64,000 nt of DNA from Chloroflexota bacterium (GTDB lineage: Bacteria; Chloroflexota; Limnocylindria; Limnocylindrales; CSP1-4). Below, piece after piece: positions 1 to 45,642 of the stretch. Under the pieces are notes generated by a model, which made no database searches, was not told the DNA's origin, and saw only the letters and a list, made by a program, of their open reading frames with translations. Both the position numbers and the translations under genes were made by a program. The DNA lies in assembly GCA_019637815.1 (NCBI GenBank), contig JAHBUZ010000001.1, positions 271,211 through 335,210 on the forward strand, in the 5' to 3' direction. Every line of letters begins with the position of its first letter. The first letter of the stretch is position 1.

Positions 1-1287
1 GCCGTGCGCAGCGAGTGCGGGCACCCGGCCGTCCAGCACGACCAGGTCCGCGCGAGCGCCCACGTCGATGCGCCCCACGGGCGCACCCACCACCGGATCC
101 ATGCTCGCGTCCGTGCCCAGCGCCGCGTCCAGGAGCGCCCGGCCGGTGTGACGACGGATGCCGTCGGAGGCCGCGACGACGTTGCGCCGTCCCTCGCGGA
201 GTCGCTGGCCGAGCTCCAGACAGCGCAGCTCCGTCGCGACGTCCGTGGTGTGATGGCCGTCCGTGCCGATCCCCCATCGTCCGCCGAGCGCGGTGAAGGC
301 AGACAGCGGGAAGAGCCCGTCCGCGAGCGTCGCCTCGGTCATGGGGCAGAGCGCGACGGTCGAGCCTGCTGCGGCCACACCAGCCAGCTCCTCGGTCGTG
401 GCGTGGGTCGCGTGGACCAGGCACCAGTCACGGTCGAGTCCCACCTCGTCGAGCAGCAGCCGGATGGGCGACGCGCCCAGCCGTGCGCGGCACTCGTCCA
501 CCTCCTCGACGCGTTCAGCGACGTGGATGTGCACCGGGCCGCCGCCCGTCGCCCGCCACGCGTCGAGCAGCGCCCGGATCTCGGCCGTGGTCGTCGCCCG
601 CAGGCTGTGGGGTGCCACGCCCCCGGTCACCAGCGGATCATCGCGGTCACGTGCCGCCGCCGCGACGGCCACGACCTCGTCCACGTCGAGCCGGAACCGT
701 TCCTGCTCGGGTCGCAGCGGCGCGCCGATCCCGCCGTGCCGATAGAGGACCGGCAGCAGCGTCAGACCGATGCCCACCGTGCTCGCCGCGTCCACGAGCG
801 CCCACGCCATGGTGCCCGGGTCGGCGAAGACCCGCCCGTCCAGGTCGCGATGGAGGTAGTGGAACTCCCCGACCTGCGTGGAGCCGCCGCGCAGCAGCTC
901 CAGGTAGACCATCGCAGCGATATCCCGGAGCTCGTCCGGCCCGACCTTCGTCGCGAAGTCATACATCGCGCGCCGCCAGGTCCAGAGGTCATCCTGACCG
1001 CCCGGCTGGCGGCACTCCGTCCGCCCGGCGATGGCGCGGTGGAAGGCATGTGAATGCAGGTCGGGGATCCCAGGGATGACGAACCCCTCGACATGCTCGT
1101 CCGGCTGCCACCTGACCGGGGCGACGGCGTGGACCCCCGTGATCAGACCATCGTGGCCGATCTCCAGGTAGCCCGGCGAGGCCCATCCGGTGGGTCGGTG
1201 GAGGTGCTCGACCTGCAATCGCCAGGGATGCGTCAGTGGTTCGATCGAGGCGGGACGACCGGCCTCGAGCACCCCTCCCCACTCCAT
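1..1287 (-). CDS. hutF: Formimidoylglutamate deiminase (HutF-like amidohydrolase); C-terminus cut by the window edge
   Basis: My own reverse-strand translation from the ATG (complement of 1285-1287) gives MEWGGVLEAG...IPGIPDLHSHAFHRAIAGRTE...GPVHIHVAERVEEVDEC...CPMTEATLADG. These are amidohydrolase metal motifs (HSH, HIH) and a HutF-like AFHRA block. The frame stays open to position 1, so it is missing from the ORF track. It is divergent from the hutUHI operon. Confidence 0.8.
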   Translation of the reverse strand, partial: MEWGGVLEAGRPASIEPLTHPWRLQVEHLHRPTGWASPGYLEIGHDGLITGVHAVAPVRWQPDEHVEGFVIPGIPDLHSHAFHRAIAGRTECRQPGGQDDLWTWRRAMYDFATKVGPDELRDIAAMVYLELLRGGSTQVGEFHYLHRDLDGRVFADPGTMAWALVDAASTVGIGLTLLPVLYRHGGIGAPLRPEQERFRLDVDEVVAVAAAARDRDDPLVTGGVAPHSLRATTTAEIRALLDAWRATGGGPVHIHVAERVEEVDECRARLGASPIRLLLDEVGLDRDWCLVHATHATTEELAGVAAAGSTVALCPMTEATLADGLFPLSAFTALGGRWGIGTDGHHTTDVATELRCLELGQRLREGRRNVVAASDGIRRHTGRALLDAALGTDASMDPVVGAPVGRIDVGARADLVVLDGRVPALAAHG

Positions 1288-1332
1288 GCGACGCGTGCCC
1301 TCCTCCTGGTCCGATCGTCACCGGTTGGCACC

Positions 1333-1400
1333 TTGACGGTGATCCACCGTACATGTACTGTCAACCGCTCGTACGGCTGGATGTCGACTGTTGACATGTA
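1333..1400. promoter_or_regulatory. Divergent hutF / hut-operon control region: -35/-10-like hexamers plus palindromes (candidate operator)
   Basis: Locally AT-richer patch in a GC-rich genome. TTGACG (1333-1338), a 17-nt spacer, then TACTGT (1356-1361) on the plus strand. Perfect 10-bp palindrome GTACATGTAC (1349-1358) overlaps the spacer and -10. TGTCAAC (1359-1365) is inverted against GTTGACA (1390-1396). GTCGAC at 1383-1388. Confidence 0.4.
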
Positions 1401-1502
1401 GCCGGGCGATCATGACAGGGACGGCGCGAGGACATCCGATCCGTGATCCGACGCAGCATCGGATCGGTCCGTCTCGCCGAGCTGGTACCGGGAGGATTGC
1501 AC

Positions 1503-2051
1503 GTGGTCGCTCAGGCGGAGGTCCGCACGGTCGTCGAGTCGGTCGATGCCGTGGTCCATCACATCGACGCGGCCCGCGATGCGATCTGGGAGTCGCCGCC
1601 CCAGGAGGTACTGTCGCTCGGTGCGGGCAACGTGCCGCGCGGGACGGGTGCCAAGAACAACTACCTGTCGACGCTCATCTTCGCCGAGAACGAGCTGCGC
1701 ACCCTGACCGACGAGATCCTGTGGTTCGGCTGGGTGACCGCGACGCGGCAGCCCGACCTCGACCTGCGCACGCTCGTGGCGTACATGGACGAGATCGCCC
1801 AGTACAAGGCGAACATGTTCGACTACGTGGGTCTGCCGGAGGGCTGCGAGGTCCTCAAGGAGTACGTCGGGGGCATCCGCATCGCCACCACGATGGAGGA
1901 GTTCGCGCGCCTCACCGAGTCCGCGATGACCTACTTCAACCGACTCCATGGCTGGGTGGACATCGTGTTCCCGTGGGGCCTCGTCAACGGCTTCCATCGC
2001 GTGAACCCGCTCCAGAAGATCGCGGACGCACACCGCGCCGGCCAGGCCTGA
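1503..2051 (+). CDS. Hypothetical protein, first gene of the hut-associated operon (predicted helical; no motif I can name)
   Basis: ORF track gives 1443..2051. An in-frame GTG at 1503 sits 6 nt after GGAGGA (1491-1496), so I prefer 1503. GC3-rich frame, 19 nt upstream of the next gene. Sequence ...NNYLSTLIFAENELRTLTDEILWFGW...MDEIAQYKANMFDY... Confidence 0.65.
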   Translation: MVAQAEVRTVVESVDAVVHHIDAARDAIWESPPQEVLSLGAGNVPRGTGAKNNYLSTLIFAENELRTLTDEILWFGWVTATRQPDLDLRTLVAYMDEIAQYKANMFDYVGLPEGCEVLKEYVGGIRIATTMEEFARLTESAMTYFNRLHGWVDIVFPWGLVNGFHRVNPLQKIADAHRAGQA

Positions 2052-2070
2052 GCAGAGGACCGAACGAGCC

Positions 2071-2499
2071 ATGAAGATCCGGTTCAACCTCGCGGGCGAG
2101 GACGTCGCGGTCATCGAGATCTGGGAGGACAAGGTCCCCCAGCTCGCCGAGAAGATCCGCGAGGCATTGCCCTTCGCGACCTATCTCCAGCACGGCAAGC
2201 TCACCGGCGACCTGCTGCTGATGCAGACCAAGATCCTCGCGGACTGGGAGAACATCTTCTATCCGGATGACCTGGTCGCCGAGAAGCTGGCCACCCACTC
2301 GGAGGTCCGCGGCGCGGTCTCCTACTACGGCCCGCGTCAGCAGATCTCGATCATGTACGGCAACGACATCCCGCCCGAGCCACTGCCGGTCTCGGCGATC
2401 GGCTGGGTGATCGAGGGTGCCGACCAGCTGGAGCTCATCGGCCTGCGGACCTGGCTCGAGCCGGGCATGCGCGTGTGGCTGTCGCTCATCGACGAGTAG
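2071..2499 (+). CDS. Cyclophilin-like-fold protein (DUF3830-like, from memory); function unknown
   Basis: 142 aa: MKIRFNLAGEDVAVIEIWEDKVPQLAEKIREALPF..HGKLTGD...GAVSYYGPRQQISIMYGND...GWVIEG. The overall pattern matches small cyclophilin-like families as I recall them. No HMM search was run. Confidence 0.7.
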   Translation: MKIRFNLAGEDVAVIEIWEDKVPQLAEKIREALPFATYLQHGKLTGDLLLMQTKILADWENIFYPDDLVAEKLATHSEVRGAVSYYGPRQQISIMYGNDIPPEPLPVSAIGWVIEGADQLELIGLRTWLEPGMRVWLSLIDE

Positions 2500-2534
2500 C
2501 AGGAGGTGTCGCCTAGGGGGGAGCACACGACCCG

Positions 2535-4169
2535 GTGTCGGGGGGCCGACGAATGACGGTGATGACCGCGGTCGCGCGAGCGGCACGCTTCGGAGGAAGT
2601 TCCATGCACGCACCAACCAGGACCCACCCGGGTCGGTCGGGCCGCCGATCGTCCGGGGTCCTCGTCGCGGCGGTGTTGGCCGCGACGGCAGCCATCCTGC
2701 CGGGCGCCCAGGTCGCCGCCCAGGACGCCACACCGACCGGCACGCTCCGCGTCGGCATCGCGGCGCTGAGCACGGCCGACACCCTCGATCCGGCGATGGC
2801 CACCACGGCCGGTGGCTACGCCATCGCGCGCCAGCTCTACGACACGCTCGTGGAGTACGGCACCGACGGCGCCGTGAGGCCCCGCCTCGCCGAGTCCATG
2901 ACACCCGGTGAGACCGCTGACATCTGGACCGTCACGCTGCGTGAGGCGACCTGGTCGGACGGCCGACCCGTGACCTCGGACGACGTGATCGCCACCTTCC
3001 AGCGGTGGTTCGACGCGGATGCGCCGCTGCCGCCCGCCAACTCGCTGCCGTTCGTGGACCCCGAGGCCATCACCAGGGTGGACGATCGCACGGTCGAGTT
3101 CCGTCTCAAGTACCCCACCGTCGTGTTCCCCGACGCACTGACATCGCCCCTGGCGGCGATCGTGCCCGCGGACTTCGACCCTGCGGCGCCGGTCGGCTCC
3201 GGTCCCTTCGTGCTCGCACAGCACGACCCGGGTGTCCGCGTCAGCTTCACGGCCAATCCCGGCTACTGGGAGGAGGGCAAGCCCGGCGTCGCCGAGCTGG
3301 AGCTCATCTCGTTCCCGGACAGCACCGCCATGATCAATGCGCTCATCGGCGACCAGGTCGATGTCGCGTCGTCGATGGATCCGAGCCTCCTGCCGCTCGT
3401 CGAGGCGGGCGGGGACGGCTACACCGTCTTCAGCTACCCGACCAGTGGCACCCTCACGTGGCAGATGAACGTGCTTCAGGAGCCGTTCGATGACCCGCTC
3501 GTGCGTGAGGCCTTCCGGCTGGCCGTGGACCGCCAGCAGCTCATCGACCAGGTCTACGTCGGCCACGCGCTCATCGGCAACGACATCTTCTCGCCGTTCG
3601 ATCCGCTCTACAGCAGCGACCTGCCGCAGCGCACCCAGGACGTCGCGCGGGCCCGTGAGCTCCTCGCCGAGGCCGGGTTCCCGGACGGTGTCGATGTCGA
3701 GCTGACGGCAGCGCCCATCCAGCCCACCGCCGTTCGTCAGAACCAGGTGATGGTCGAGCAGGTCGCCGACGCCGGCTTCCGGGTGAACTTCAACCAGGTG
3801 GATGCCGCGACCTACTACGGCGAGGGCTACGGGACCTATCCGCTGTCCCTCTCCTTCTGGGGCCAGCTGGGCATCTTCGACCAGGCGGCCTTCACGATCG
3901 TCAACAACGCCCCGTACAACGCCACCAAGTGGCAGGATGACGAGTACAACGCGCTCTACGAACAAGCGGTCCGCACCGTCGATGACGCGACGCGAGCGGG
4001 GCTCGTCCGCCAGATGCAGCAGATCGAGTACGACCGCGGGCCCTACCTGGTGCCCCTGTTCCTCAATAACCTGAGTGCCTATGACACGAAGGTGACGGGC
4101 TACCAGCCATACCCCAACAACAGCGGTCCGAGTGGCTACAACTTCAAGGACATGCGCATCAGCGAGTAG
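2535..4169 (+). CDS. ABC transporter substrate-binding protein, family 5 (peptide/nickel/opine type)
   Basis: 544 aa. Arg-rich N-terminus followed by hydrophobic VLVAAVLAATAAILPGA (Tat/Sec-like signal). LRVGI...DTLDP...YDTLVEY...W(S)DG.PVTSDDV is typical of SBP_bac_5. The start could instead be an internal ATG (2553 or 2604). Confidence 0.9.
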   Translation: MSGGRRMTVMTAVARAARFGGSSMHAPTRTHPGRSGRRSSGVLVAAVLAATAAILPGAQVAAQDATPTGTLRVGIAALSTADTLDPAMATTAGGYAIARQLYDTLVEYGTDGAVRPRLAESMTPGETADIWTVTLREATWSDGRPVTSDDVIATFQRWFDADAPLPPANSLPFVDPEAITRVDDRTVEFRLKYPTVVFPDALTSPLAAIVPADFDPAAPVGSGPFVLAQHDPGVRVSFTANPGYWEEGKPGVAELELISFPDSTAMINALIGDQVDVASSMDPSLLPLVEAGGDGYTVFSYPTSGTLTWQMNVLQEPFDDPLVREAFRLAVDRQQLIDQVYVGHALIGNDIFSPFDPLYSSDLPQRTQDVARARELLAEAGFPDGVDVELTAAPIQPTAVRQNQVMVEQVADAGFRVNFNQVDAATYYGEGYGTYPLSLSFWGQLGIFDQAAFTIVNNAPYNATKWQDDEYNALYEQAVRTVDDATRAGLVRQMQQIEYDRGPYLVPLFLNNLSAYDTKVTGYQPYPNNSGPSGYNFKDMRISE

Positions 4170-4177
4170 CACGACCT

Positions 4178-4213
4178 CGGCCCGGTCCCGGTCAGCCGAC
4201 CGGGGTCGGGCCG
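4178..4213 (+). terminator. Intercistronic GC-rich stem-loop after the SBP gene (partial terminator or mRNA-stabilising hairpin)
   Basis: A 14-bp stem (4178-4191 pairs with 4200-4213, including 2 G-U pairs) with the 8-nt loop tcagccga. It lies 9 nt after the SBP stop codon, inside the 92-nt gap before the permease gene. No U-tract follows. Confidence 0.4.
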
Positions 4214-4261
4214 GTGTCCCATCCCGCTCACCCGAGCCCGACTCGCCATGACCCCTGACCC

Positions 4262-5344
4262 GTGCCCACGCGTGCCGGACCGTCAGGGCCTTCGCGCGTC
4301 GTGAGCAGCTCGCTGCCCGGGGCGCTCCCCCCGCCACAGGTCCCGCTCGAGCCCACGGCGCCCACCAGCGCGCCATCCGTCCGGGCGCCGCTGCTGCGCT
4401 ACGTCGGACGGCGTGTGGTGTATGGCCTGGTGATGCTCGCGATCGTGTCGGTCGCCGTGTTCGTGTTCACCCAGGCACTGCCCGGCGACGTCGCACGTCA
4501 GGTGCTCGGCCAGACCGCGACCGACCAGCAGATCGAAGCGCTCCGCGCTCGCCTCGGTCTCGACCAACCGTTGCTCACGCAGTATCTCGACTGGGTCCGA
4601 GGGCTCGTCACCCTGGATCTGGGCACCTCGCTCACCTCGGGTCGGGATGTCGTGGAGGTCCTCACGCCCCGCGTCACCGCGTCCGTCCTGCTCGTGGGCC
4701 TGACCGTCCTGGTGCTGGTGCCGCTCGCCTTCCTGCTGGGTGCGGCTGCCGCGATCCGGCCCCATGGCATCGTCGATCGGGTGGTATCCACGATGGTGCT
4801 GGCCATCATCGCGCTGCCCGGCTTCATCATCGCCATCCTGCTGGTCGTGGTCTTCGCCACGAACGTGGTCCGATGGTTCCCGCCGACCTCCATCATCGAC
4901 ACCCGGCTGCCGCTCTGGCAGCAGCTCCACCTGTTCACGCTGCCGGTGCTCGCGCTCGTGCTCGGATCGCTGCCCTACATGACCGAATCCATCCGGACGA
5001 CCCTGCGGGAGGAGCTCGCCTCCGAGCACGTCGCGTGGGCTCGGCTCTCCGGGGTACCCGGCTCCCGGGTGCTGCTGCGGTACGCGGTCCCGAACGCCAT
5101 CGCGCCGACGCTCCAGGTCGCCGGCACGACCCTCATCTACCTCGTGGGCGGCATCGTGGCCGTCGAGACGGTCTTCGCCTTCCCGGGCGTCGGTGCGTCC
5201 CTTGCGGCGGGTGTGGCCAATCGGGACATCCCGGTGGTCCAGGCCATCACGATGCTGCTCGCGCTCGTGGCGCTCGTCATCTATCTCGGCGCGGACATCC
5301 TGGGCATCCTGCTCACGCCGAGACTCCGGACATCGCTCCGATGA
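4262..5344 (+). CDS. ABC transporter permease (DppB/OppB-like)
   Basis: The conserved N-terminus LLRYVGRRVVYGLVMLAIVSVAVFV and multiple TM segments are typical of BPD_transp_1 permeases. The real start is probably downstream of 4262 (GTG at 4301, or a non-canonical codon near 4390). Confidence 0.85.
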   Translation: MPTRAGPSGPSRVVSSSLPGALPPPQVPLEPTAPTSAPSVRAPLLRYVGRRVVYGLVMLAIVSVAVFVFTQALPGDVARQVLGQTATDQQIEALRARLGLDQPLLTQYLDWVRGLVTLDLGTSLTSGRDVVEVLTPRVTASVLLVGLTVLVLVPLAFLLGAAAAIRPHGIVDRVVSTMVLAIIALPGFIIAILLVVVFATNVVRWFPPTSIIDTRLPLWQQLHLFTLPVLALVLGSLPYMTESIRTTLREELASEHVAWARLSGVPGSRVLLRYAVPNAIAPTLQVAGTTLIYLVGGIVAVETVFAFPGVGASLAAGVANRDIPVVQAITMLLALVALVIYLGADILGILLTPRLRTSLR

Positions 5345-6246
5345 GCGAGCGACCGATGGATCTCGTGCTGCCGGTCGCGACCGGGCCGACCGAGCCAAGC
5401 GTGCCGACCGAGCCCTCGACGCCCCGACGGTATCGGTCCGCGCGCGCCAGGGTCGTCGCCGATCGTCGTGCGTGGGTCGGCGCCGCGTGTGTCGTCGTCG
5501 TGATGGTCATCGCGTTCGGCGGGCCACTCGTGACCACGTTCGATCCGGGTGGCTTCGTGGGCCCACCGTTCCAGCGAGCGTCCCCGGAGTTCGTGCTCGG
5601 CCTGGATGCCCTCGGCCGCGACGTCTTCTCGCAGGTGCTCGCCGGCGGCGCGCTGTTCCTGACCGAGGTCGTCCTCGCGACCATCCTGGGCGTGGGCCTG
5701 GGCACCCTGCTCGGCATCGCGCTCGCTGCGGCACCGCGTCGGGTATCCGAGGCGATGCTGACCGTCAACGACACGATCCTCGTGATGCCCCAGATCGTGG
5801 TGGCCCTGCTGGTGCTCACCCGCCTGGGTGCCACGCCGGTGACCCTCACCCTCGTCATCGGCTTCGTGCACATCCCCCAGACCGCACGCGTGGTCATGGC
5901 CGCGACCCAGCGCGTGATCGCCCAGGACTACGTGGCCGCCGCGCTCGGGCTGGGCGTCGGTCGCATCGGTCTCGTGGTCCACGAGATCCTGCCCAACATC
6001 GCGGGCGTCGTGTCGCTCGAGGCGAGCATCCGGCTCGCCATCTCTGCGGTCGTCCTGGCGTCCCTGTCGTACCTCGGGTTCGCCGCATCCGGCGTGGAGT
6101 GGGGTCGGATGATCCACGACAACCAGGGTGGCCTCGCGATCCAGCCCTGGGCGGTCATGGCGCCCGTCATCGTCCTGGGCGTGTTCCTCATCGGTGCGAA
6201 CCTCCTGCGGGACGCCATCGCGCGCGCACTCGCGAGTCACACATGA
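5341..6246 (+). CDS. ABC transporter permease (DppC/OppC-like)
   Basis: ATG at 5341 overlaps the upstream stop (ATGA). MSERPMDL... then TM-rich sequence; the LGLDALGRDVFSQVL motif is typical of DppC. It is in frame within track ORF 4873..6246. Confidence 0.85.
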   Translation: MSERPMDLVLPVATGPTEPSVPTEPSTPRRYRSARARVVADRRAWVGAACVVVVMVIAFGGPLVTTFDPGGFVGPPFQRASPEFVLGLDALGRDVFSQVLAGGALFLTEVVLATILGVGLGTLLGIALAAAPRRVSEAMLTVNDTILVMPQIVVALLVLTRLGATPVTLTLVIGFVHIPQTARVVMAATQRVIAQDYVAAALGLGVGRIGLVVHEILPNIAGVVSLEASIRLAISAVVLASLSYLGFAASGVEWGRMIHDNQGGLAIQPWAVMAPVIVLGVFLIGANLLRDAIARALASHT

Positions 6247-7853
6247 GCGATCCGACCATGGCCCTGCCGTCGACCAGGTCACGGCCCACCGAGGTCCGGG
6301 GCCTGCGCATCACCACGACCACCGGTGGCACGATCATCCCGGCGCTCGACCTGCGGGTCGACCGGGGCAGCATCGTGGGTGTCGCCGGCGAGACCGGCTC
6401 GGGCAAGACCACGCTCGGCCTCGCGCTCCTCGGCTGGCAGCGCCCGGGTCTCGTGCGTGCCTCGGGCGTCGTGCTGCTCGATGACGATGACCTGGGGACG
6501 CTCTCGGGCGAGGGACTCCGGCGCATCCGGGGCCGGCGTATCGCGTACGTGCCGCAGGATCCGGGGACGGCGCTCGACCCGGCGATGCGCATCCGCGACG
6601 CCCTGGGCGAGGTGCTCCGCGCACACGAGGTCACCGACCACGCCGCCCAGCTGGCGCGCATCGGGGAGCTGTTCGGCCAGGTCGGGCTGCCGCACGACGC
6701 CGCGTTCCTGGCCCGCTTCCCTCATCAGCTGTCGGGTGGGCAGCAGCAGCGGGTCGCCATCGCGACCGCGTTCCTGCTCGATCCCGAGGTGGTGGTCATG
6801 GACGAGCCGACCACCGGTCTCGATGCGGCGACGAAGGCGGGCGTCCTGGCGCTCATCCACGACCTCGCGCGTCGTCGCCAGGCGAGCGTGCTGCTCATCA
6901 GCCATGACCTGCGGATGCTGCTCGCGGCCACGGACCGCATCCTCATCATGCGCGACGGCGTCATCGTCGAGGACGCACCGAGCACGGATCTGCCGCGGCC
7001 CGGGATGCATCCCTACACCGAGCAGCTGCTCGCGGCGCTGCCCGACCCCACCGCGCACCGGGTGGCCGATCACGGCAGCACGACGGGGGACGGTCTGGCG
7101 CTCCGTGGGATCACGGCGCGCCATGCGGGTGTCGTCATCACCGACGCCATCGACCTGGTGGTCGCGCAGGGCGAGTGCGTGGCCCTGGTGGGCGAGTCGG
7201 GCAGTGGCAAGACCACGCTCGCTCGATGCATCGCCGGGTTCCACACCGAGTACTCGGGCAGCGTCGAGTGGGATGGGCGCGTGCTGCCACATGGCGTGCG
7301 TGAGCGTGCCCTCGGCGACCTCCGGACCATCCAGTACGTGTTCCAGAACCCGTATGCGTCGCTCAACCCGCGTCGGACGGTGGGGGACACGCTTGCCATG
7401 GCCGCGCGCACCATCCGGGGCGTGGACCGCGCGACCGCGACCGCGGATGCCGGGCGTGCCCTCGATCGCGTGGGCATGGATCGGTCGTTCCTCGCCGCGC
7501 CGCCCCAGGCGCTCTCGGGCGGCCAGCGACAGCGCATCGCGCTCGCCCGAGCCCTCATCGCCCAGCCGCGACTGCTGGTCTGTGACGAGGTGACCTCATC
7601 GCTCGATGTGTCCGTGCAGGCAGGCATCATCGAGCTGCTCATGGACCTGCGCCGCAGCGAGGGGCTCGCGATGCTGTTCATCACCCACGACCTGGCGCTC
7701 GTCAGCTCGATCGCCGCTCGGACGGTCGTGCTCCAGCGCGGTCGGATCGTGGAGCAGGGCCCCACGGCCCAGGTGCTCGATCATCCGGACCATCCGTACA
7801 CCCGGATGCTCCTGAGCCATCACGACGCGACCCAGTCGCGGCAGCCCCGATGA
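6243..7853 (+). CDS. ABC transporter ATP-binding protein with two fused ATPase domains (DppD/DppF-like)
   Basis: ATG at 6243 overlaps the upstream stop (ATGA). Two Walker A motifs ([18 protein letters not shown]), two LSGGQ signatures and two Walker B motifs ([16 protein letters not shown]). Confidence 0.9.
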
Positions 7854-9526
7854 GCGTGGGCACGGGCACCACGGCCCGCATCATCCGCGCCCCGCGTGGC
7901 GCCGAGCTGACGTGTCGCGGCTGGTCCCAGGAGGCGGCCCTGCGGATGCTCATGAACAACCTCGACCCCGACGTCGCGGAGCGGCCAGCGGACCTCGTGG
8001 TCTATGGCGGGACAGGTCGCGCGGCGCGCTCGTGGGAGGCCTTCGACGCCATCGTCCGGGAGCTGCGCACGCTCGCCGATGACGAGACGCTCCTCGTGGC
8101 ATCGGGCAAGCCCGTGGGCGTGTTCCGGACCCACCCCTGGGCACCACGCGTGCTCATCGCGAACAGCAACCTGGTGGGGCGCTGGGCCAACTGGGAGACG
8201 TTCCGGGAGCTGGAGCGAGCCGGGCTCACGATGTACGGCCAGATGACGGCGGGCTCGTGGATCTACATCGGCACCCAGGGCATCCTCCAGGGCACCTACG
8301 AGACGTTCGCGGAGCTCGCTCGGCAGCACTTCGGGGGGACGCTCCGGGGCCGCGTCGTGCTGACCGCCGGTCTGGGTGGCATGGGTGGCGCCCAGCCGCT
8401 CGCGGTGACCATGAACGAGGGCGTGTGCCTCGCCATCGAGGTGGATGCGGAGCGTGCCCGTCGACGCCTGGACATCGGCTATGTCGACCGGATGACCGAC
8501 TCGCTCGACGAGGCGCTGCGCATCGCTCGCGAGGCTGCGGCGGCCGGCCAGGCGCTGTCGATCGCGCTCGTGGGCAACGCCGCGGCGCTGGAGCCCGAGC
8601 TCGTGCGACGCGGTGAACGCTTCGATGCGGTCACCGACCAGACCTCGGCCCATGATTCGCTCGGTGGGTACATCCCGGCGGGGCTGACGCTGGAGGCCGC
8701 CGCCGATCTGCGGACCTCCGATCCAGATGGCTATGTGGCACGTGCGATGGCCTCCATGGCCGACCAGGTGCGGGCGATGCTGGCGCTCCAGGCATCGGGC
8801 GCCGTGACCTTCGACTATGGCAACAACATCCGGGCACAGGCACAGGCCGAGGGTGTCACCGACGCCTTCGCGTTCCCGGGGTTCGTGCCCGCGTTCATCC
8901 GACCGCTCTTCTGCGAGGGCAAGGGCCCCTTCCGCTGGGTCGCCCTGTCCGGTGACCCACGGGATATCGCACGGACCGACGAGGCGATTCTCGACCTGTT
9001 CCCGGACGATCCGGCGCTGCGACGCTGGATCACCATGGCCCAGGAGCGGGTGCCGGTCCAGGGGTTGCCGGCACGCATCTGCTGGCTGGGCTATGGCGAG
9101 CGGGCACGGGCAGGCGCCGCCTTCAACGAGCTCGTCCGGACAGGGGCGGTCCAGGCACCCATCGTCATCGGCCGGGACCATCTCGATGCCGGCTCGGTCG
9201 CGTCGCCCAACCGGGAGACGGAGGCGATGGCCGATGGCTCCGATGCGATCGCGGACTGGCCGCTGCTCAACGCGCTCGTCAACACCGCGGCCGGCGCCAG
9301 CTGGGTGAGCATCCATCACGGCGGTGGCACGGGCATCGGCTTCAGCCAGCACGCGGGCATGGTCGTGGTCGCGGACGGCACCGAGCTCGCCGCGCAACGC
9401 CTGGAACGGGTACTCACCACCGACCCGGGCATGGGTGTCATCCGGCACGTGGATGCCGGCTACGAACGCGCCATCGAGGTCGCACGGGCGCGCGGCGTCC
9501 ACGTCCCGATGCTGTCGCAGCCATGA
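7850..9526 (+). CDS. hutU: Urocanate hydratase
   Basis: 558 aa. ...[41 protein letters not shown]..., full-length urocanase pattern. The start overlaps the ATPase stop (ATGA). Confidence 0.95.
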
Positions 9527-11151
9527 TCGATGGAGCGTCCACCGGGCGCGCTCCCGTCGTGCTCACGGGCGCCGGGCTGACCATCGAGGACGTGGTCGCG
9601 GTCGCGCGCCACGGCGCGCTCGCCCGCCTGGACGACGATGCCCGGACACGCGTGGCCGAGTCCCGAGCCGTCATCGAACGTCTGGTCGCGGCCGGCGAGG
9701 TGGTCTACGGCGTGACCACCGGCTTCGGTGCGCTGGCCACCACGTTCGTGCCACCCGAGCACGCCCAGGACCTCCAGGAGCGGCTGCTGCGCAGCCACGC
9801 GGCGGGGGTCGGTCCGGCGTTCCCGACCGAGGTCGTTCGGGCGATGCTCCTCCTGCGGGCCAACACGCTGGCCCTCGGTCACTCGGGATGTCGCCCGGAG
9901 GTCATCGACCGGCTGTGTGACCTGCTTCGCCTGGGCATCCACCCGGTCGTGCCGGAGCAGGGCAGCGTGGGCGCATCGGGCGATCTTGCGCCACTCGCGC
10001 ATCTCGCGCTGCCACTCATCGGCCGTGGCGAGGTGGAGCTGGACGGTCGGGTGATGCCCGCGTCGGCGGCCCTCGATGCGGTCGGCTTGGCGCCCCTCGT
10101 GCTGGGACCCAAGGAGGGCCTGGCGCTCCTCAACGGGACCCAGATGATGAGCGCCATCGGGGCCTTGCTGCTCGCCGACGCCGACCGGCTGGCGCGCACC
10201 GCCTCCACGGTCGCGGCGCTCTCCGTGGAAGCACTCCTGGGGACCTCGGTCGCGTTCAGCGCCGCGTACCAGCTCGCGCGACCCCACGCTGGGCAGGTGC
10301 GCACGGCCGCTGAGCTCCGCTGGCTGCTCCGTGACAGCTCGCTCCAGGCTGCCCACCGCGCGCTCGATCACCGGGTCCAGGATCCGTACTCGCTCCGCTG
10401 CGTGCCCCAGGTCCACGGCGCGAGCCGGGATGCGCTCGACCACCTGCGACGGGTGCTGGACATCGAGATCAACGCCGCGACGGACAACCCGCTGGTCTTC
10501 CCGGAGGCCGGAGTGGTCCCCGCGGACGCCCTCGCGACGGGGGGCGGCCACGTCATCAGCGGCGGCAACTTCCACGGGCAACCGATCGCCCTCGCCCTCG
10601 ACTTCGCGAAGCTCGCCATCGCGGAGCTGGGCTCCATCAGCGAACGCCGCGTGGCGCTGATGCTCGATCCGCGGCTCAACGAGGGTCTGCCGGCGTTCCT
10701 GGGTGCGTCGTCGGGTCTCGACTCCGGGCTCATGATCCTCCAGTACACCGCCGCCGCGCTCGTGTCCGAGGACAAGGTGCTGGCACACCCTGCCTCTGCG
10801 GATTCGGTGCCCACGTCGGCGAACCAGGAGGACCACGTCTCGATGGGCTCCATCGCGGCACGCCACGCCCGGCGCGTGCTGGAGCATGTCGAGCACATCC
10901 TCGCCATCGAGCTCATCTGCGCGAGCCAGGCGCTCGATCTCCGCCTCGACGGTCATCCGGGGACGCAGCCCGGCGTGGGCGTCCGCGAGGCACACGCCCT
11001 GGCGCGCTCGGTCGTCCCGCGGCTCGAGAGTGACCGCGAGCCCGGGCCGGACATCGCGGCCGCGCTGATGCTCGTGCGCAGTGGCCGGCTGGCCCGTCTC
11101 GCCGATCCGCCCGAGCTGCCACCCGGGCCGTGGCTCGACCTGGGCGTCTGA
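9523..11151 (+). CDS. hutH: Histidine ammonia-lyase
   Basis: 542 aa. The MIO-forming [16 protein letters not shown] motif is present and the layout is HAL/PAL family. The start overlaps the hutU stop. Confidence 0.95.
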
Positions 11152-12332
11152 TGCAGCACGCCATCACGGGACGGGGCCGTCTGCTGCCCATGACCGGTCC
11201 GCCCTCGGGAGATCTCGGGACCATCGATGGTCCATGGATCATCCTCGTGACGGACGGGGTGGTCGTGGAGGTCCGGCCAGGTGGCCTACGCCCCGGGGAC
11301 CCGGAGTCGGTCACCGATGTCGGGGCGGCGCTGTGCACGCCGGGCCTGGTCGATCCGCACACGCATCTCGTGTTCGGTGGCGACCGCAGCGACGAGGCCG
11401 CTGCCCGCGCGCGTGGCGAGCGCTACACGGGCGGCGGCATCCTGCGCACCGTCGCAGCGACCGAGGCGACTCCCGACGACGTGCTGCGGGATGGGCTCCG
11501 CGGACGCCTCGGGCGTGCCATGGCGACCGGCACCACGACCATCGAGGTCAAGTCCGGCTACGGCCTGACCGCTGCTGCCGAGATCCGTCTCCTGCGGCTG
11601 ATCGGGGAGGCGGCGGCACCGCTCCCGCTGCGCGTGGCGCGCACCTACCTGGGGGCCCACGCCGTGCCACCGGGCATGACGCCAGCGTCACAGGCGCAGG
11701 CGGTCATCGACGCGCTCCCGCAGGTCGCGTCCCTTGCGGACCACATCGACGTGTTCTGCGAGCCGGACCTGTTCGATGTGTCGCTCGCGCGATCGATCCT
11801 GCTGGCCGGACGTGCGCACGGCCTCGGCCTGCGGATCCACGCCGACCAGCTCCGACGGTCGGGTGCGCTCTCGCTCGGTGTGGAGCTGGGCGCTCGCTCG
11901 GTGGACCACCTGGAGCAGGCGACGGCCGATGATGCGCGCCTGCTCGCGGACAGTGGCACCGTCGCGACCGTGCTGCCGGGGCCGGCGCTCCTGCTGCGAG
12001 GCGGCCTGCCCCCGGTGCGTGCCCTGTTCGACGCGGGCGCGACCGTGGCCCTCGGCAGTGATGCCAACGCGGGCACGTTCGGCGAGCCGTCGATGCCCCT
12101 CGCCATCGGGCTCGGCGTCATGATCGGATGCTCGGTCGAGGAGGCGTGGTGGGCCGCGACCCGGGGCGCGGCCGCGTCGCTCGGGCTCGCGGACACGGTG
12201 GGCTGTCTCGGGCCCGGCATGGCTGCGGACATCGTGGCCTGGGACGTGGAGCACGAGGGTGCGGCCGCGATGCGACCCGGGGCCATCCGGCCCGTCCGGG
12301 CCTGGTTCGCGGGACGGCCCCGATCGGACTGA
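11151..12332 (+). CDS. hutI: Imidazolonepropionase
   Basis: Amidohydrolase with GLVDPHTHLVFGGDR and ...RIHADQL... motifs. ATG at 11151 shares one nt with the hutH stop (TGATG). The track start at 11130 is the alternative. Confidence 0.9.
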   Translation: MQHAITGRGRLLPMTGPPSGDLGTIDGPWIILVTDGVVVEVRPGGLRPGDPESVTDVGAALCTPGLVDPHTHLVFGGDRSDEAAARARGERYTGGGILRTVAATEATPDDVLRDGLRGRLGRAMATGTTTIEVKSGYGLTAAAEIRLLRLIGEAAAPLPLRVARTYLGAHAVPPGMTPASQAQAVIDALPQVASLADHIDVFCEPDLFDVSLARSILLAGRAHGLGLRIHADQLRRSGALSLGVELGARSVDHLEQATADDARLLADSGTVATVLPGPALLLRGGLPPVRALFDAGATVALGSDANAGTFGEPSMPLAIGLGVMIGCSVEEAWWAATRGAAASLGLADTVGCLGPGMAADIVAWDVEHEGAAAMRPGAIRPVRAWFAGRPRSD

Positions 12333-12354
12333 CGGCGCTGCCACGGGACGGCCG

Positions 12355-12738
12355 CTATGCGATCGGCTCGAGCACGAACCTCCCGTAGGCCACGAACAGC
12401 GCGAGCGCGCCCAGCACCGCGTTGATGATGATGTTGGGATACTCCCGGCGCTGGATGTGCAGCACGATGGCGCCGACCATCACGAGCGCGAGTCCCACGG
12501 CCGCCACCGGCGTGAGCCAGGGCAGCACCCGGGATGCCGCCGGCGCGACCAGCCCGATGGCTCCCAGGATCTCGAGGATGCCGATGATGCGCATCCGCTC
12601 CTGGCCGACCGCGTGCATCCAGGCCATCGGCGGCCGGCGTGCCGCCCGCTCGAAGTCGAAGGCGTGGGAGTAGCCGGCGACCAGGAACGCCAGCGCGAGC
12701 CCGATCTGTACCGCCCACAGGGCGACATCCATGTCCAC
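12355..12738 (-). CDS. DoxX-family membrane protein
   Basis: 127 aa with 4 predicted TM helices and a DoxX-like pattern (ALAFLVAGYSH...GILEILGAIGLV...). Convergent with hutI. Confidence 0.75.
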   Translation of the reverse strand: MDMDVALWAVQIGLALAFLVAGYSHAFDFERAARRPPMAWMHAVGQERMRIIGILEILGAIGLVAPAASRVLPWLTPVAAVGLALVMVGAIVLHIQRREYPNIIINAVLGALALFVAYGRFVLEPIA

Positions 12739-12762
12739 GCCCTCCTTGGTGCGTGTGACCGG

Positions 12763-13407
12763 CTATGTGCCGGTCGATGCCTCCGACGCCTGCTCCAGCG
12801 CGGACAGGAGCACGGAGACCTCCTGCGCACCGGAGACGCCGAAGCGCCGGTCGAACACGAAGAACGGCACCCCTCGGATGCCCAGCTCCGCGGCCAGCCG
12901 CTCGTCCTCGCGTACCGCGGCCCCGAACTCGTCGCTCGCGAGGGTCGCTCGCGCTCGGTCGGCGTCCACGCCGACCTCGCTCGCGAGACGCACCAGCGTG
13001 TCCGGGTCCGAGATCGCGGCACCCTCCGTGAAGTACGCGGCGTGCAGGCGGTCGGTCATCGCGGCGCCCATGCCGAGGCTGTCCGCGAGATGGGACAAAC
13101 GATGGGCATCGAAGGAGTTGCCGGGTCGCGCGATGTCCAGGCGATAGCTGAGCCCTTCGCTCGCCGCGACGTCGGTCACGCGCTGGTTCATGGCGCGTGC
13201 CTGGTCCGCGCTGACGCCGTACTTCGTGGACAGCATCGTCTCCAGGGACTCGTCCGTGGTCGCGGGTCGGCCCGGGTCCAGCTCGAAGCTGCGATACGTG
13301 ACCGTGACGTCGTCACGCTTCCCGGATCGCTCCAGCGCTCGATGGAGCCGCGTCGTGCCGATGTAGCACCACGGGCAGACGACGTCCGACCACACCTCGA
13401 TGTCCAT
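12763..13407 (-). CDS. DsbA/FrnE-family thiol-disulfide oxidoreductase
   Basis: MDIEVWSDVVCPWCYIG... contains the CPWC active site. Length and layout resemble FrnE / 2-hydroxychromene-2-carboxylate isomerase-like DsbA proteins. Confidence 0.85.
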   Translation of the reverse strand: MDIEVWSDVVCPWCYIGTTRLHRALERSGKRDDVTVTYRSFELDPGRPATTDESLETMLSTKYGVSADQARAMNQRVTDVAASEGLSYRLDIARPGNSFDAHRLSHLADSLGMGAAMTDRLHAAYFTEGAAISDPDTLVRLASEVGVDADRARATLASDEFGAAVREDERLAAELGIRGVPFFVFDRRFGVSGAQEVSVLLSALEQASEASTGT

Positions 13408-13869: not shown

Positions 13870-13919
13870 CCGATGAGCCTGCCCATCCACCGATGAGCCC
13901 CCGGGACCACCGATGAGCC
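13870..13919 (+). repeat. Three direct copies of CCGATGAGCC spaced exactly 20 bp apart; the last overlaps the start codon of the next gene
   Basis: Copies at 13870-13879, 13890-13899 and 13910-13919. The last two extend to CCACCGATGAGCCC. Each copy contains an ATG, and the ATG at 13913 is the predicted start. Confidence 0.6.
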
Positions 13920-14584
13920 CGCGGGCGCGCCGGGACGCGCTCGCAACGAGCGTCGTCGCGACCGGTGCCGGCGATGACGGGACCACGGGCCTCCTGTTCG
14001 GCGGCCGTGTCTCGAAGGACGACCTCGCCGTCGAGGCGTACGGCACGGTGGACGAGACGGTCGCGGCCCTGGGGACCGCGCGGGCAGAGCTGCCCGCCGA
14101 CGATCCGCTGCCCGCCGACGATCCGCTGCCCGCACTGGATGGCCTGGCGCCACTCGTCCTGCGGCTCCAGCGGGAGCTGTTCGTGGCGGGTGCGGAGCTG
14201 GCCACGAACCCGACGGCCACGGACCGGCTCCAGGATGGCGTGACCCGCGTGGACGAGGCGATGCTCGTCGCGATCGAGGCCGATCTCGCCGCGTGGGAAG
14301 CGCGCATCACGATGCCCCGTGAGTTCGTGGTGCCCGGCCAGAGCCGGCTGTCCGCCGCGCTCGAGGTCGCCCGGGTCACCTGTCGCCGCGCCGAGCGACG
14401 GGTCATCACCGCACGCCGTGCGGGGCACCCCACCGGAGAGTGGCTGGTGCCATGGCTCAATCGCGTGGCGGACCTGTTGTGGGTGCTCGCGCGGGCCGCC
14501 GAGCAGGCCGAGGATGCGGGCACGACGGCCGCCATCGTGGGCGAGCGTCGTCGGACCGCGGGTCGTTCTCGGGACGGGCGGTGA
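13913..14584 (+). CDS. ATP:cob(I)alamin adenosyltransferase, PduO type
   Basis: TGAGDDGTTGL..G.RV.KDD..VEAYGTVDE...LQRELF..GAELAT...FV.PG.S..SAALEVAR..CRRAERR matches the PduO/MMAB family. Confidence 0.85.
   Translation: MSPRARRDALATSVVATGAGDDGTTGLLFGGRVSKDDLAVEAYGTVDETVAALGTARAELPADDPLPADDPLPALDGLAPLVLRLQRELFVAGAELATNPTATDRLQDGVTRVDEAMLVAIEADLAAWEARITMPREFVVPGQSRLSAALEVARVTCRRAERRVITARRAGHPTGEWLVPWLNRVADLLWVLARAAEQAEDAGTTAAIVGERRRTAGRSRDGR
14090..14133 (+). repeat. In-frame 18-bp tandem duplication (about 2.4 copies) inside the adenosyltransferase gene
   Basis: ctgcccgccgacgatccg occurs at 14090-14107 and is repeated exactly at 14108-14125. A partial third copy follows at 14126-14133. It encodes LPADDP-LPADDP-LPA. 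Confidence 0.9.
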
Positions 14585-26408: not shown

Positions 26409-27323
26409 TCAGCTCCTCCGATACGGCTTGAGGTAGGCACCCGGGTACGCCACGTTGCGCCCCGAGATGGCGAGCGCGGCGATGACCGCGAGATAGGGCA
26501 GCGCGAGCATGATCTCCGGCGGCACGCCCTGCCAGCCGTCCATGATCTGGAGTCGCAGGCCGAGCGAGTACACGAACGAGAACAGCAGGGCACCCAGGAC
26601 GCCCCGCCCGATGCGCCAGCGACCGAAGATGACGAGCGCGACGCACACCCAGCCCCGCCCCGCGATGATGTCCAGCGTGAAGGTGCCCAGGACGGCGAGC
26701 GTCAGGAACGCGCCGCCGACGGCCATGAGCGCCGAGCCGAGCATCAGCGCGAAGTAGCGCACCCGGGCCACCCGGATCCCCGCCGCGTCGGCCGCCTCCG
26801 GGTCCTCGCCCACCGCCCGGATGGACAGACCGATGGGTGTCCGGTCGAGCAGCCACCACGCGGCCGGTACCACGAGCAGGAACGCCACGTAGGTCAGGCC
26901 GTACTGCTGCGCCACGTGACCGATGTCGCCGAACCCGGCGAGCGGATCCCAGAGTGGCATGGGCGTGATGCGCGGCGCCTGTGAGCCACTGAGCAACAAG
27001 CGATTGCTGAACTCGGACAGGCCGACCAGCGCGATGGTCAGGCCGAGACCCGCGACGTGCTGGTTGGCGCCCAGGGTCACCGTCAGGAGCGCCATCACGG
27101 CACCCGCCAGGAGCCCGACCACGACCGCGGCGAGGAGACCCAGCAGGGGATCGCCGGTCTGCCACGCCACCGCGAACCCGGCGAACGCGCCCGCGTACAT
27201 CGTCCCTTCGATGCCCAGGTTGAGCACACCCGAGCGCTCCGTGATGGTCTCGCCGGTCGTGCCATAGACCAGCGGCGTGGCATTCCGGAAGGTGGACGCG
27301 AGCAGGTCGAACAGGAAGGTCAT
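26409..27323 (-). CDS. ABC transporter permease (BMP/nucleoside-type importer, YufQ/NupQ-like)
   Basis: 304 aa. MTFLFDLLASTFRNATPL.YG..GE.ITERSGV.NLG.EG.M is the typical N-terminus of this permease family. Multiple TM segments. Confidence 0.85.
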   Translation of the reverse strand: MTFLFDLLASTFRNATPLVYGTTGETITERSGVLNLGIEGTMYAGAFAGFAVAWQTGDPLLGLLAAVVVGLLAGAVMALLTVTLGANQHVAGLGLTIALVGLSEFSNRLLLSGSQAPRITPMPLWDPLAGFGDIGHVAQQYGLTYVAFLLVVPAAWWLLDRTPIGLSIRAVGEDPEAADAAGIRVARVRYFALMLGSALMAVGGAFLTLAVLGTFTLDIIAGRGWVCVALVIFGRWRIGRGVLGALLFSFVYSLGLRLQIMDGWQGVPPEIMLALPYLAVIAALAISGRNVAYPGAYLKPYRRS

Positions 27324-28465
27324 CCGACCCCCTCCGCCGCGATCGGTGGCGGCTCACCGGGCCGGTCGGTCGGGGAGGCGCGTGACCCATCGGCCGGGGA
27401 CGGGCCCGCGGGTGGTGGCTCGTCGATGGCCGCGCGGCGAGAGCGCCACGCACGCGTTGCGAGCACCGCCACCATGGCCAGCAGCAGCATCCCCTGGATG
27501 ACCTCGCCCATCTGGGAGGGCACCGACAGCGTCCGCTCGGCGATGCTCGAGCCGATGGTCAGGTCACCCAGCAGCAGACCGGCGAGCAGCACGCCGGGCA
27601 TCGTGAGGCCACCCAGCATCGCGACCACGATGCCGCTGTAGCCGTAGCCCGGCGAGAGACCGGCGGTGAGGCGGTACTGGAGCCCGGCGACCTCGCTCAC
27701 ACCCGCGATCCCCGCGATGGCGCCACTCACGAGCGCGACCCGCAGCAGGGTCCGCTCCACCGGGATGCCCGCGAAGCGCGCCGCGCCCGGGGCGAGGCCC
27801 ACGGCACGCACCCGGAGCCCGGTCGCGGTGCGGGTGAGCACGTACCACGCGATGACGATGCCCACGATGCCCAGCACGAAGCCGAGATGCAGCCGCGATC
27901 CCTCCAGCAGGCGCGGGAAGTGGGCCGACGCGGCGATGGGCGGTGATTCGGTGATGCCCATGGGATCGCGCCACGGTCCCTGGACGAGGGCCTTCACGAA
28001 CAGCAGCGCCACCGGGTTGAGGAGCAGCGTCGTGACCACCTCGTCGATGCCCAGGCGGACGCGCAGCAGCGCCGGCACGAACGCCCACGCCGCCCCCGCG
28101 AGCGCTCCACCACCGATCATCACGGGCACGGCCAGGATGGGCGGCACGTCGGTGAGCACCTGGCCCAGCCCGCCCGCGGCGATGGCGCCCAGGAGCAGCT
28201 GCCCCTCCGCGCCGATGTTCCAGTAGCCGGCGCGGAAGGCGATCGCGACCGACAGTCCACACAGCAGCAGGGGCGTGCTCGCCACGAGCACCTCGAGCAG
28301 GCGGAACTGGCTGGTGAGCGGCGCGACCAGGAACTGGTACCACGCGGCGAGCGGGTCGGCACCCGCGACCACGATCGCGGCGCCCGTGACACCCAGCACC
28401 GTGATGAGCGCCACGACGGCCACGCCCACAGGACTCTGGAGCCCGGCGAGCGCCTGCCGGTTCAC
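27320..28465 (-). CDS. ABC transporter permease (BMP/nucleoside-type importer, YufP/NupP-like)
   Basis: 381 aa, TM-rich, with ...GYWNIGAEGQLLLGA... typical of the family. ATGA-type overlaps on both sides. Confidence 0.85.
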   Translation of the reverse strand: MNRQALAGLQSPVGVAVVALITVLGVTGAAIVVAGADPLAAWYQFLVAPLTSQFRLLEVLVASTPLLLCGLSVAIAFRAGYWNIGAEGQLLLGAIAAGGLGQVLTDVPPILAVPVMIGGGALAGAAWAFVPALLRVRLGIDEVVTTLLLNPVALLFVKALVQGPWRDPMGITESPPIAASAHFPRLLEGSRLHLGFVLGIVGIVIAWYVLTRTATGLRVRAVGLAPGAARFAGIPVERTLLRVALVSGAIAGIAGVSEVAGLQYRLTAGLSPGYGYSGIVVAMLGGLTMPGVLLAGLLLGDLTIGSSIAERTLSVPSQMGEVIQGMLLLAMVAVLATRAWRSRRAAIDEPPPAGPSPADGSRASPTDRPGEPPPIAAEGVG

Positions 28466-45424: not shown

Positions 45425-45642
45425 GAGACCCCCGATCCTGTTCCCTGGTGACGGGACCGGGCTCGCCATTGCTCCACGTGGTCCACCGGCGACCGAGTGA
45501 TCCGGACCACGCATCGACGCTTCCCGCATTCGTAGCTGCACCGAGGATAGGGTGTCATGCGTGGCGCCGTCGACGGTAGGATCGCTGACGGTGGTGCGCG
45601 CACGCACCAGGCGAGGCTCGTGAAGGTGCCTGCCCACGCCGC

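Follow-up and report, generated by a model that had tools for sequence, protein, structure and literature searches.

Two small adjacent open reading frames (ORFs) in a 64,000-nucleotide stretch of the assembly GCA_019637815.1, labelled Chloroflexota bacterium (contig JAHBUZ010000001.1, positions 271,211 to 335,210 of the forward strand; hereafter the window), encode the two separate halves of one enzyme with the McbB/KslB/Cus/Mis Pictet-Spenglerase fold. ORF A (1503-2051, + strand) is a stand-alone helical-bundle subunit belonging to the Pfam family Cucumopine_C, and ORF B (2071-2499, + strand) is a stand-alone cyclophilin-like β-barrel subunit with a predicted catalytic glutamate, Glu103. The pair is a split form of the bacterial Pictet-Spenglerases that is linked to an importer and probably has a catabolic role. 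More specifically, and with about an even chance of being right, it may be a two-subunit, cofactor-free lyase that cleaves an imported adduct of histidine and an oxo acid by a retro-Pictet-Spengler reaction, thereby feeding the histidine ammonia-lyase HutH.

ORF A matches the family PF18631 (Cucumopine_C) along nearly the entire profile (positions 1-139 of 141), with an E-value of 1.2e-35 and a score of 123.2 bits, the cut-off being 27; an earlier note on this DNA, which could name no motif in this protein, was wrong on this point. Sequence matches in the Protein Data Bank (PDB) are McbB (3x27) and the KslB-type Pictet-Spenglerases (9ns6, 9k0a and 9uwa), and the family profile of ORF A reaches McbB at E 1.6e-16. 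The AlphaFold2 (AF2) model of ORF A has a predicted local distance difference test (pLDDT) score of 89.8, and a Foldseek search of the PDB with this model returns only the helical domains of McbB and KslB (template modelling (TM) score 0.62-0.74), the next match having an E-value above 0.4.

ORF B remains under every Pfam cut-off, with scores of 20.4 against 27 for Cyclophil_like (PF04126), 15.7 bits against 22.7 for Cyclophil_like2 and 15.2 against 26 for DUF3830 (PF12903), and neither ORF A nor ORF B has a match in NCBIfam. The AF2 model of ORF B (pLDDT 85.8) finds the KslB barrel as the top Foldseek match (TM 0.76-0.79, E 2e-7), followed by TM1367 and McbB. Judged by this model, ORF B has a cyclophilin-like fold and is not a formal member of DUF3830 or Cyclophil_like, so the description in the earlier note, cyclophilin-like and DUF3830-like, stands at the level of the fold and falls below the Pfam thresholds. 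Small cyclophilin-like proteins of the TM1367/DUF3830 type (1zx8, 2ka0, 2nnz and 3kop) resemble ORF B in fold and size (TM 0.6-0.7), with weak sequence similarity, but their sampled members are without a helical partner; the DUF3830 genes of an Azospirillum plasmid are solitary, lie next to amidohydrolases and shed no light on the pair.

Alignment of the B family by hhalign with the barrels of KslB, Cus, Mis and the plasmid paralogues described below gives a probability of 95.8% and an E-value of 7e-9. In addition, a metagenomic protein of 299 amino acids (P0132) is a naturally fused chain with the A half before the B half, and has 40% identity to ORF A and 35% to ORF B. Taken together, the fold matches, the hhalign result and this fusion are the reason for regarding the two proteins as halves of one family enzyme, and both folds that the family requires, barrel and bundle, are present on two chains. 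This bears out the suggestion that the pair is a split relative of cucumopine synthase, and the Pfam search that had been proposed as a check, together with the Foldseek comparison of the separate models, did find a relation to cyclophilin-like and opine-synthase folds. The earlier note had described cucumopine synthase as a cyclophilin-like domain with a C-terminal helical bundle; the domain pairing is correct, but the bundle of the true Cus and KslB is N-terminal.

Both frames are real genes, as argued from a third-position GC content of 0.85-0.97 in the coding frames and from dozens of conserved homologues for each. ORF A has a GTG start and encodes 182 amino acids, and ORF B has an ATG start and encodes 142; the spacer between them (2052-2070) is 19 nt long, which reproduces on the + strand the arrangement noted earlier. 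An alternative reading of ORF A from the GTG at 1443 is also open and would give 202 amino acids. The start at 1503 is assigned as the true one on sequence comparison, because the homologues begin at an equivalent MVAQAE or MVSQAE and cover only about 88-90% of the 202-residue query. The motif GGGAGGA is found 7 nt upstream of position 1503.

In KslB (PMC12012969), Glu274, which corresponds to Glu97 of McbB, is the essential general base and takes up the ring proton once the ring has closed. The carboxylate of the substrate rests on the backbone of residues 223-225, and those that stem from 2-oxoglutarate are bound by R256 and K264. The residue E103 of ORF B, within the motif EPLPVS, does not vary among 23 sequences. 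Hidden Markov model (HMM) and hhalign alignments both place it opposite KslB E274, in a column that is invariant across KslB, Cus, Mis and the pairs of the root-inducing (Ri) plasmids. Furthermore, the segment HGKLTGD (41-47) of ORF B aligns with the carboxylate-binding loop HAVVSGE (221-227) of KslB, and residues F60, R66, N146, R147 and W151 of ORF A, together with an FPW motif, are common to the superfamily. The alignments thus indicate that the scaffold and the acid/base residue are kept, while the pocket is unlike that of the 2-oxoglutarate-using enzymes. His149 of ORF A was considered as a marker of histidine-using enzymes, being present in Mis and in the pRi1724 pair and replaced by Thr or Asn in KslB and McbB, and was ruled out by the alanine at this position in Cus.

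KslB from Kitasatospora setae (9ns6, 9nst and 9k0a) is a Pictet-Spenglerase joining L-tryptophan to 2-oxoglutarate. It shares with the pair the same two folds in the same order, bundle then barrel, and its F46 and R52 correspond to F60 and R66 of ORF A. In contrast to the pair, KslB is a single chain of 317 amino acids and a biosynthetic enzyme in a β-carboline cluster, with about 18-21% identity, and the residues of its indole pocket (F89, H134, Y230 and W232) are replaced here by M105, D153, L50 and Q52. McbB from Marinactinospora thermotolerans (3x27, deposited as 'cucumopine synthase') is the best PDB sequence match to ORF A, is a structural match to both halves and has the same catalytic glutamate (E97), but it is a single biosynthetic chain in the order barrel then bundle and acts on tryptophan and oxaloacetaldehyde. 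Cus and Mis, encoded by the transferred DNA (T-DNA) of plasmids pRi2659 and pRi1724, respectively, are members of the same family that use L-histidine, as the context of the window would imply. Cus has the A-then-B domain order, and the barrel motif GAVSYYGPRQQISIMYG...E of ORF B resembles the motif GAVYLYAPGQSIVLTYG...E of the Mis barrel. Unlike the pair, both are single-chain synthases expressed in the plant, with 22-28% identity to ORF A and weak similarity to ORF B.

Genomic context was compared among relatives by scanning one genome per species, which yielded 26 loci, of which 25 were evaluable. The family is rare, with 228 proteins at E <1e-3 among 1.84 billion representatives. Most loci are labelled as Actinomycetota, including the Microbacteriaceae Ruicaihuangia, Herbiconiux, Protaetiibacter and Lacisediminihabitans; further carriers include Cellulomonas, Propionicimonas, Jiangella, Acrocarpospora, Dactylosporangium, Coriobacteriia and Solirubrobacterales. 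Three loci are labelled otherwise, as Chloroflexota, Clostridiales and Flexilinea. The first of these (L006, JAXLXC010000012.1), from a metagenome-assembled genome, is syntenic with the window, with proteins 71-99% identical. It may be mis-binned, because the other close relatives are Microbacteriaceae, and the Clostridiales (L014) and Flexilinea (L018) loci pose the same question.

The gene order A, B, substrate-binding protein of the SBP5 type, permease, permease is found in all 25 evaluable loci, and a fused ATPase comes next wherever the locus reaches far enough to score. In each of these loci A and B are two separate genes, not the single polypeptide expected of the family. A divergent regulator of the IclR type is present in most of the relatives' loci. 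No other conserved enzyme, exporter or tailoring enzyme was found in the cassette among the 25 loci, and from the lack of another conserved enzyme it is argued that the product of A and B enters central metabolism directly. At least one of HutH, HutU and HutI is encoded within 10 kb in 11 of the 25, with the hut genes upstream or downstream, on either strand and in several orders, amounting to at least six arrangements. Against a chance expectation of about 0.8% per locus, the binomial P for this linkage is ~5e-17; treating no more than six events as independent raises it to 5e-8. The earlier note had held that frequent occurrence of the pair away from both hut genes and transporters would tell against its proposal; the importer is in fact constant and the hut linkage recurrent. 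The cassette has two features of an opine-type catabolic module, namely an adjacent binding-protein-dependent importer and a linkage to histidine catabolism. A third feature, a cognate synthase delivered to the plant on the T-DNA of a tumour-inducing (Ti) or Ri plasmid, is lacking: no T-DNA genes were found near the window pair or the relatives' loci, and the contigs of both are actinobacterial and in some cases megabase-sized.

In the window, the pair heads an operon in which the importer genes are followed on the same strand by hutU, hutH and hutI, as the earlier note had recognised. The importer, an ATP-binding cassette (ABC) system, begins with a substrate-binding protein (SBP) of the SBP_bac_5 family (2535-4169, +, exact start uncertain; PF00496, E 2e-76), which bears an N-terminal signal-like segment. 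Its best solved relative is AgaA (6hlx), which binds the opine agropinic acid; NikA-type proteins are also among its relatives but score worse than AgaA, and it remains far under the NikA cut-off and reached no NCBIfam equivalog. Two ABC permeases with BPD_transp_1 matches span 4262-6246 (+; approximately 4262-5344, with an uncertain start, and 5341-6246), followed by a fused double ABC ATPase (6243-7853, +) with two ABC_tran domains and an oligo_HPY domain. The remaining genes encode urocanate hydratase, HutU (7850-9526, +; TIGR01228, 970 bits against a cut-off of 375), which scores under the NCBIfam cut-offs of the thiourocanate hydratases, histidine ammonia-lyase, HutH (9523-11151, +; TIGR01225, 663 bits against 539), and imidazolonepropionase, HutI (11130-12332, +; TIGR01224, 310.6 bits against 298), whose gene closes the operon. 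Beyond hutI lies a DoxX_2 gene in convergent orientation (12355-12738, -). Divergent from the operon lies hutF, encoding formimidoylglutamate deiminase (3-1287, -; TIGR02022, 417.8 bits against 413 in NCBIfam), the 3' end of which runs past the edge of the window; all four hut genes thus exceed their NCBIfam equivalog cut-offs.

The junctions between the operon genes are overlapping or short. The start of the ATPase gene overlaps the stop of the preceding permease gene, and the ATPase, hutU, hutH and hutI genes overlap one another, the ATPase stop with the hutU start; these overlaps indicate one transcript. A consensus scan of 1250-12800, which takes in the whole row of operon genes, found no terminator-like sites and no sigma-70 promoter consensus, although such a scan is uninformative in a high-GC actinobacterium. 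Neither an IclR regulator nor an arginase-type hutG was found in the window, and in the window and in its closest relative, L006, hutF lies upstream in the place of the IclR gene. Between hutF and ORF A, a block at 1330-1398 is near-identical in L006, while its flanks diverge. It holds a perfect palindrome, GTACATGTAC (1349-1358), and an inverted TGTCAAC/GTTGACA pair (1359-1365 and 1390-1396). This block is a candidate promoter-operator, and it may serve as the operator for a regulator that replaces the IclR protein of most relatives. Elsewhere in the window, the segment at 45445-45533 (-) matches the c-di-GMP-II-GCG riboswitch variant in Rfam (RF03170), with 58 bits against a gathering score of 47.9, and a perfect 18-bp tandem repeat of 2.5 copies (14089-14133), lying within an ORF at 13913-14584, encodes a repeated DDPLPA segment.

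Independent support for the opine idea comes from the contexts of distantly related family members on plasmids pRi1724, pRi2659 and pHS1. On the mikimopine plasmid pRi1724, a split pair (27055-28022) annotated as 'DUF3830 family protein' (139 amino acids) and 'hypothetical protein' (181 amino acids) lies just outside the T-DNA gene mis, and its members share 54% and 40% identity with the two Mis halves. Next to it come an amino-acid ABC importer, genes for hydantoinase/oxoprolinase A and B, regulators and another ABC system, and then an entire hutF-I-H-G-U-D block. A role in opening lactam opines has been proposed for the hydantoinase/oxoprolinase pairs found in opine regions (PMC6733357). On plasmid pHS1 of Sodalis praecaptivus, a pair of the same type adjoins an RpiR regulator, hutH, an amino-acid ABC system and a hydantoinase pair, and pMl1 of Sinorhizobium medicae also carries the split architecture.

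The cucumopine plasmid pRi2659 carries, outside its T-DNA, two fused members annotated as hypothetical or DUF3830 only (coordinates within locus L040). One (2436-3383, -) is a copy of cus that is 92% identical to the T-DNA gene and has a different N-terminus, and the other (3765-4721, +) is a domain-permuted paralogue of 318 amino acids, barrel then bundle, directly beside hutH and hutC; a hydantoinase pair and an ABC importer are found in the same non-T-DNA region. The near identity of the plant-side and bacterial-side cus genes would fit one enzyme working in both directions. Importers and hutH thus accompany three branches of the family that are only distantly related. The split pairs of the plasmids and the permuted paralogue of pRi2659, whose function is likewise putative, come closest to the window pair as functional analogues; on pRi1724, pRi2659 and pHS1 they are linked both to hutH or an entire hut operon and to an importer that depends on a binding protein. 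They differ from the pair in their barrel-then-bundle order, in their importer of the polar amino-acid type and in their hydantoinase/oxoprolinase genes, which are absent in the window, and show 24-28% identity to ORF A and ORF B.

Three further, distant split pairs from metagenomes lie inside operons of binding-protein-dependent importers, sometimes as two tandem pairs. Such tandem barrel-plus-bundle pairs are seen at 8567-10495 of locus L042 and at 7583-9534 of locus L044, in ABC importer operons that belong to other transporter families, with SBP_bac_1/8 and Peripla_BP_6 proteins; in L042, UbiD/UbiX-like and M20 peptidase genes are close by. The symbiosis plasmid pSYMBR3459 of Paraburkholderia phenoliruptrix carries a fused Cus-like gene (locus L036, 9983-10969) with 52% identity to Cus, directly after hisZ and hisG and near hisC and a major facilitator superfamily (MFS) transporter gene. 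This locus looks like one that makes and exports a histidine-derived, opine-like compound in a nodule symbiont.

From these comparisons we infer the activity of the pair, the direction of its reaction, the identity of its substrate and the formation of a complex. By analogy with the KslB and McbB homodimers, the probable assembly of ORF A and ORF B is A2B2, in which the active site would lie where barrel and bundle meet. A cyclic adduct derived from histidine would enter the cell through the SBP_bac_5 ABC system. The likeliest substrate class is that of the 4,5,6,7-tetrahydro-imidazo[4,5-c]pyridines made from L-histidine and a 2-oxo acid, the known examples being cucumopine and mikimopine, both derived from histidine and 2-oxoglutarate. 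In the cytoplasm, the two proteins would run the Pictet-Spengler reaction backwards and without a cofactor: Glu103 of ORF B would protonate the imidazole ring carbon, the C-C bond would then break to give an iminium, and hydrolysis of the iminium would release L-histidine and the oxo acid. Consumption of the histidine by HutH, HutU, HutI and HutF would pull the equilibrium. Such a reaction would require neither a cofactor nor a partner enzyme, which matches the minimal cassette. For the carbonyl partner, 2-oxoglutarate has precedent, but room should be left for other adducts, since equivalents of R256 and K264 are absent, the transporter family is different and the habitats are soil, sludge and termite gut.

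Several observations weigh against this lyase proposal. Retro-Pictet-Spengler reactions are known in chemistry, but no enzymatic one was found in the searchable literature, and all characterised members of the family are synthases (PMC12012969, PMC12536604). ORF B has a gap at the position of KslB R256 and a glutamine, Q91, at that of K264; both KslB residues are present in Cus and are without equivalents in Mis and the pRi1724 pair. Moreover, the clade has charged and polar invariants of its own, namely K51, E62, N63, E64, D70, E71, K102, D107 and D153 in ORF A and R89, Q90 and Q91 in ORF B. With these invariants and the loss of the R256/K264 pair, the substrate may differ from cucumopine, and the chemistry could differ too. 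The transporter family in the window is not that found on the Ri plasmids, 14 of the 25 loci have no hut gene within 10 kb, and the hosts are Actinomycetota of soil, sludge and termite gut, which are not known as opine consumers.

The pocket differences speak for the alternative that the pair acts on an imported histidine compound by another reaction, the fold providing only an amino-acid-binding pocket. The pair could, for example, epimerise an adduct, open or rearrange a related ring, or cleave a peptide-like conjugate or a histidine substituted at N-α, and such substrates would agree with SBP_bac_5 proteins, which typically bind peptides, nickel complexes or opines. However, Pictet-Spengler condensation is the only chemistry known for this pairing of folds, the general acid/base glutamate and the carboxylate loop are retained, metal-binding or nucleophile motifs typical of hydrolases are absent, and no second enzyme is conserved in the cassette. 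This alternative is considered unlikely.

That every characterised relative is a synthase instead raises the prospect of a pair working synthetically, joining histidine or another amino acid to a carbonyl compound to give an alkaloid, an opine-like product or a trap for reactive carbonyls; the apparently biosynthetic setting of the fused Paraburkholderia gene, beside hisZ, hisG, hisC and an MFS transporter, points the same way. Yet the partner transporter is a binding-protein-dependent importer in every evaluable locus, which has neither an exporter nor a tailoring enzyme, and the regulator is of the IclR type. In addition, translation of the window genes is coupled to that of enzymes that degrade histidine and would draw on the same substrate. 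A synthetic role is therefore improbable.

The 14 loci without a nearby hut gene, together with the distant split pairs in importer operons that lack hut genes, would be expected if the hut link were incidental and the cassette handled an adduct of another amino acid or an unrelated solute. Against this stand the enrichment of hut genes far above chance, seen in several arrangements and orders, the single transcript indicated by the overlapping genes of the window, and the recurrence of the association on three proteobacterial plasmids with distantly related members, which leave little probability for a chance neighbourhood. That the pair is no enzyme and serves in binding or regulation, for instance as a receptor in the cytoplasm for the imported ligand or for a metal-histidine complex delivered by a NikA-like system, is very improbable, for although NikA-type proteins are among the SBP relatives and no activity is known for the small cyclophilin-like proteins of the TM1367 type, the SBP is closer to AgaA and far below the NikA cut-off, the catalytic glutamate and many pocket residues are invariant over 50-100% identity, and the family is otherwise enzymatic.

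The proposal that the pair is a catabolic lyase bears on the whole superfamily. The searchable literature gives no catabolic role for PF18631 proteins and nothing on DUF3830, containing only synthase papers and chemical reviews, and it assigns no enzyme to the degradation of cucumopine or mikimopine. To our knowledge, Pictet-Spenglerases, which are valued as biocatalysts, are known only as ring-forming enzymes. Somewhat more tentatively than the lyase function itself, the pair is put forward as the first dedicated 'retro-Pictet-Spenglerase', a two-subunit, cofactor-free C-C lyase opening histidine-derived tetrahydro-imidazopyridines. A natural ring-opening enzyme would be new enzymology and would mean that the reaction is physiologically reversible. 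Barrel/bundle gene pairs in ABC importer operons would then form an unrecognised catabolic branch of the Pictet-Spenglerase superfamily, which would include the long-missing cucumopine- and mikimopine-degrading enzymes of the Ri plasmids and so provide candidate genes for the catabolism of both opines. A testable rule follows: a fused gene in biosynthetic or export surroundings would encode a synthase, and a split pair within an importer operon a lyase. Such a lyase would also be a new entry point to histidine utilisation in Actinomycetota. In free-living members of this phylum, the substrate might be something other than a plant opine, namely the products of a spontaneous reaction of histidine with oxo acids or aldehydes, in which case the pair would salvage chemically damaged histidine.

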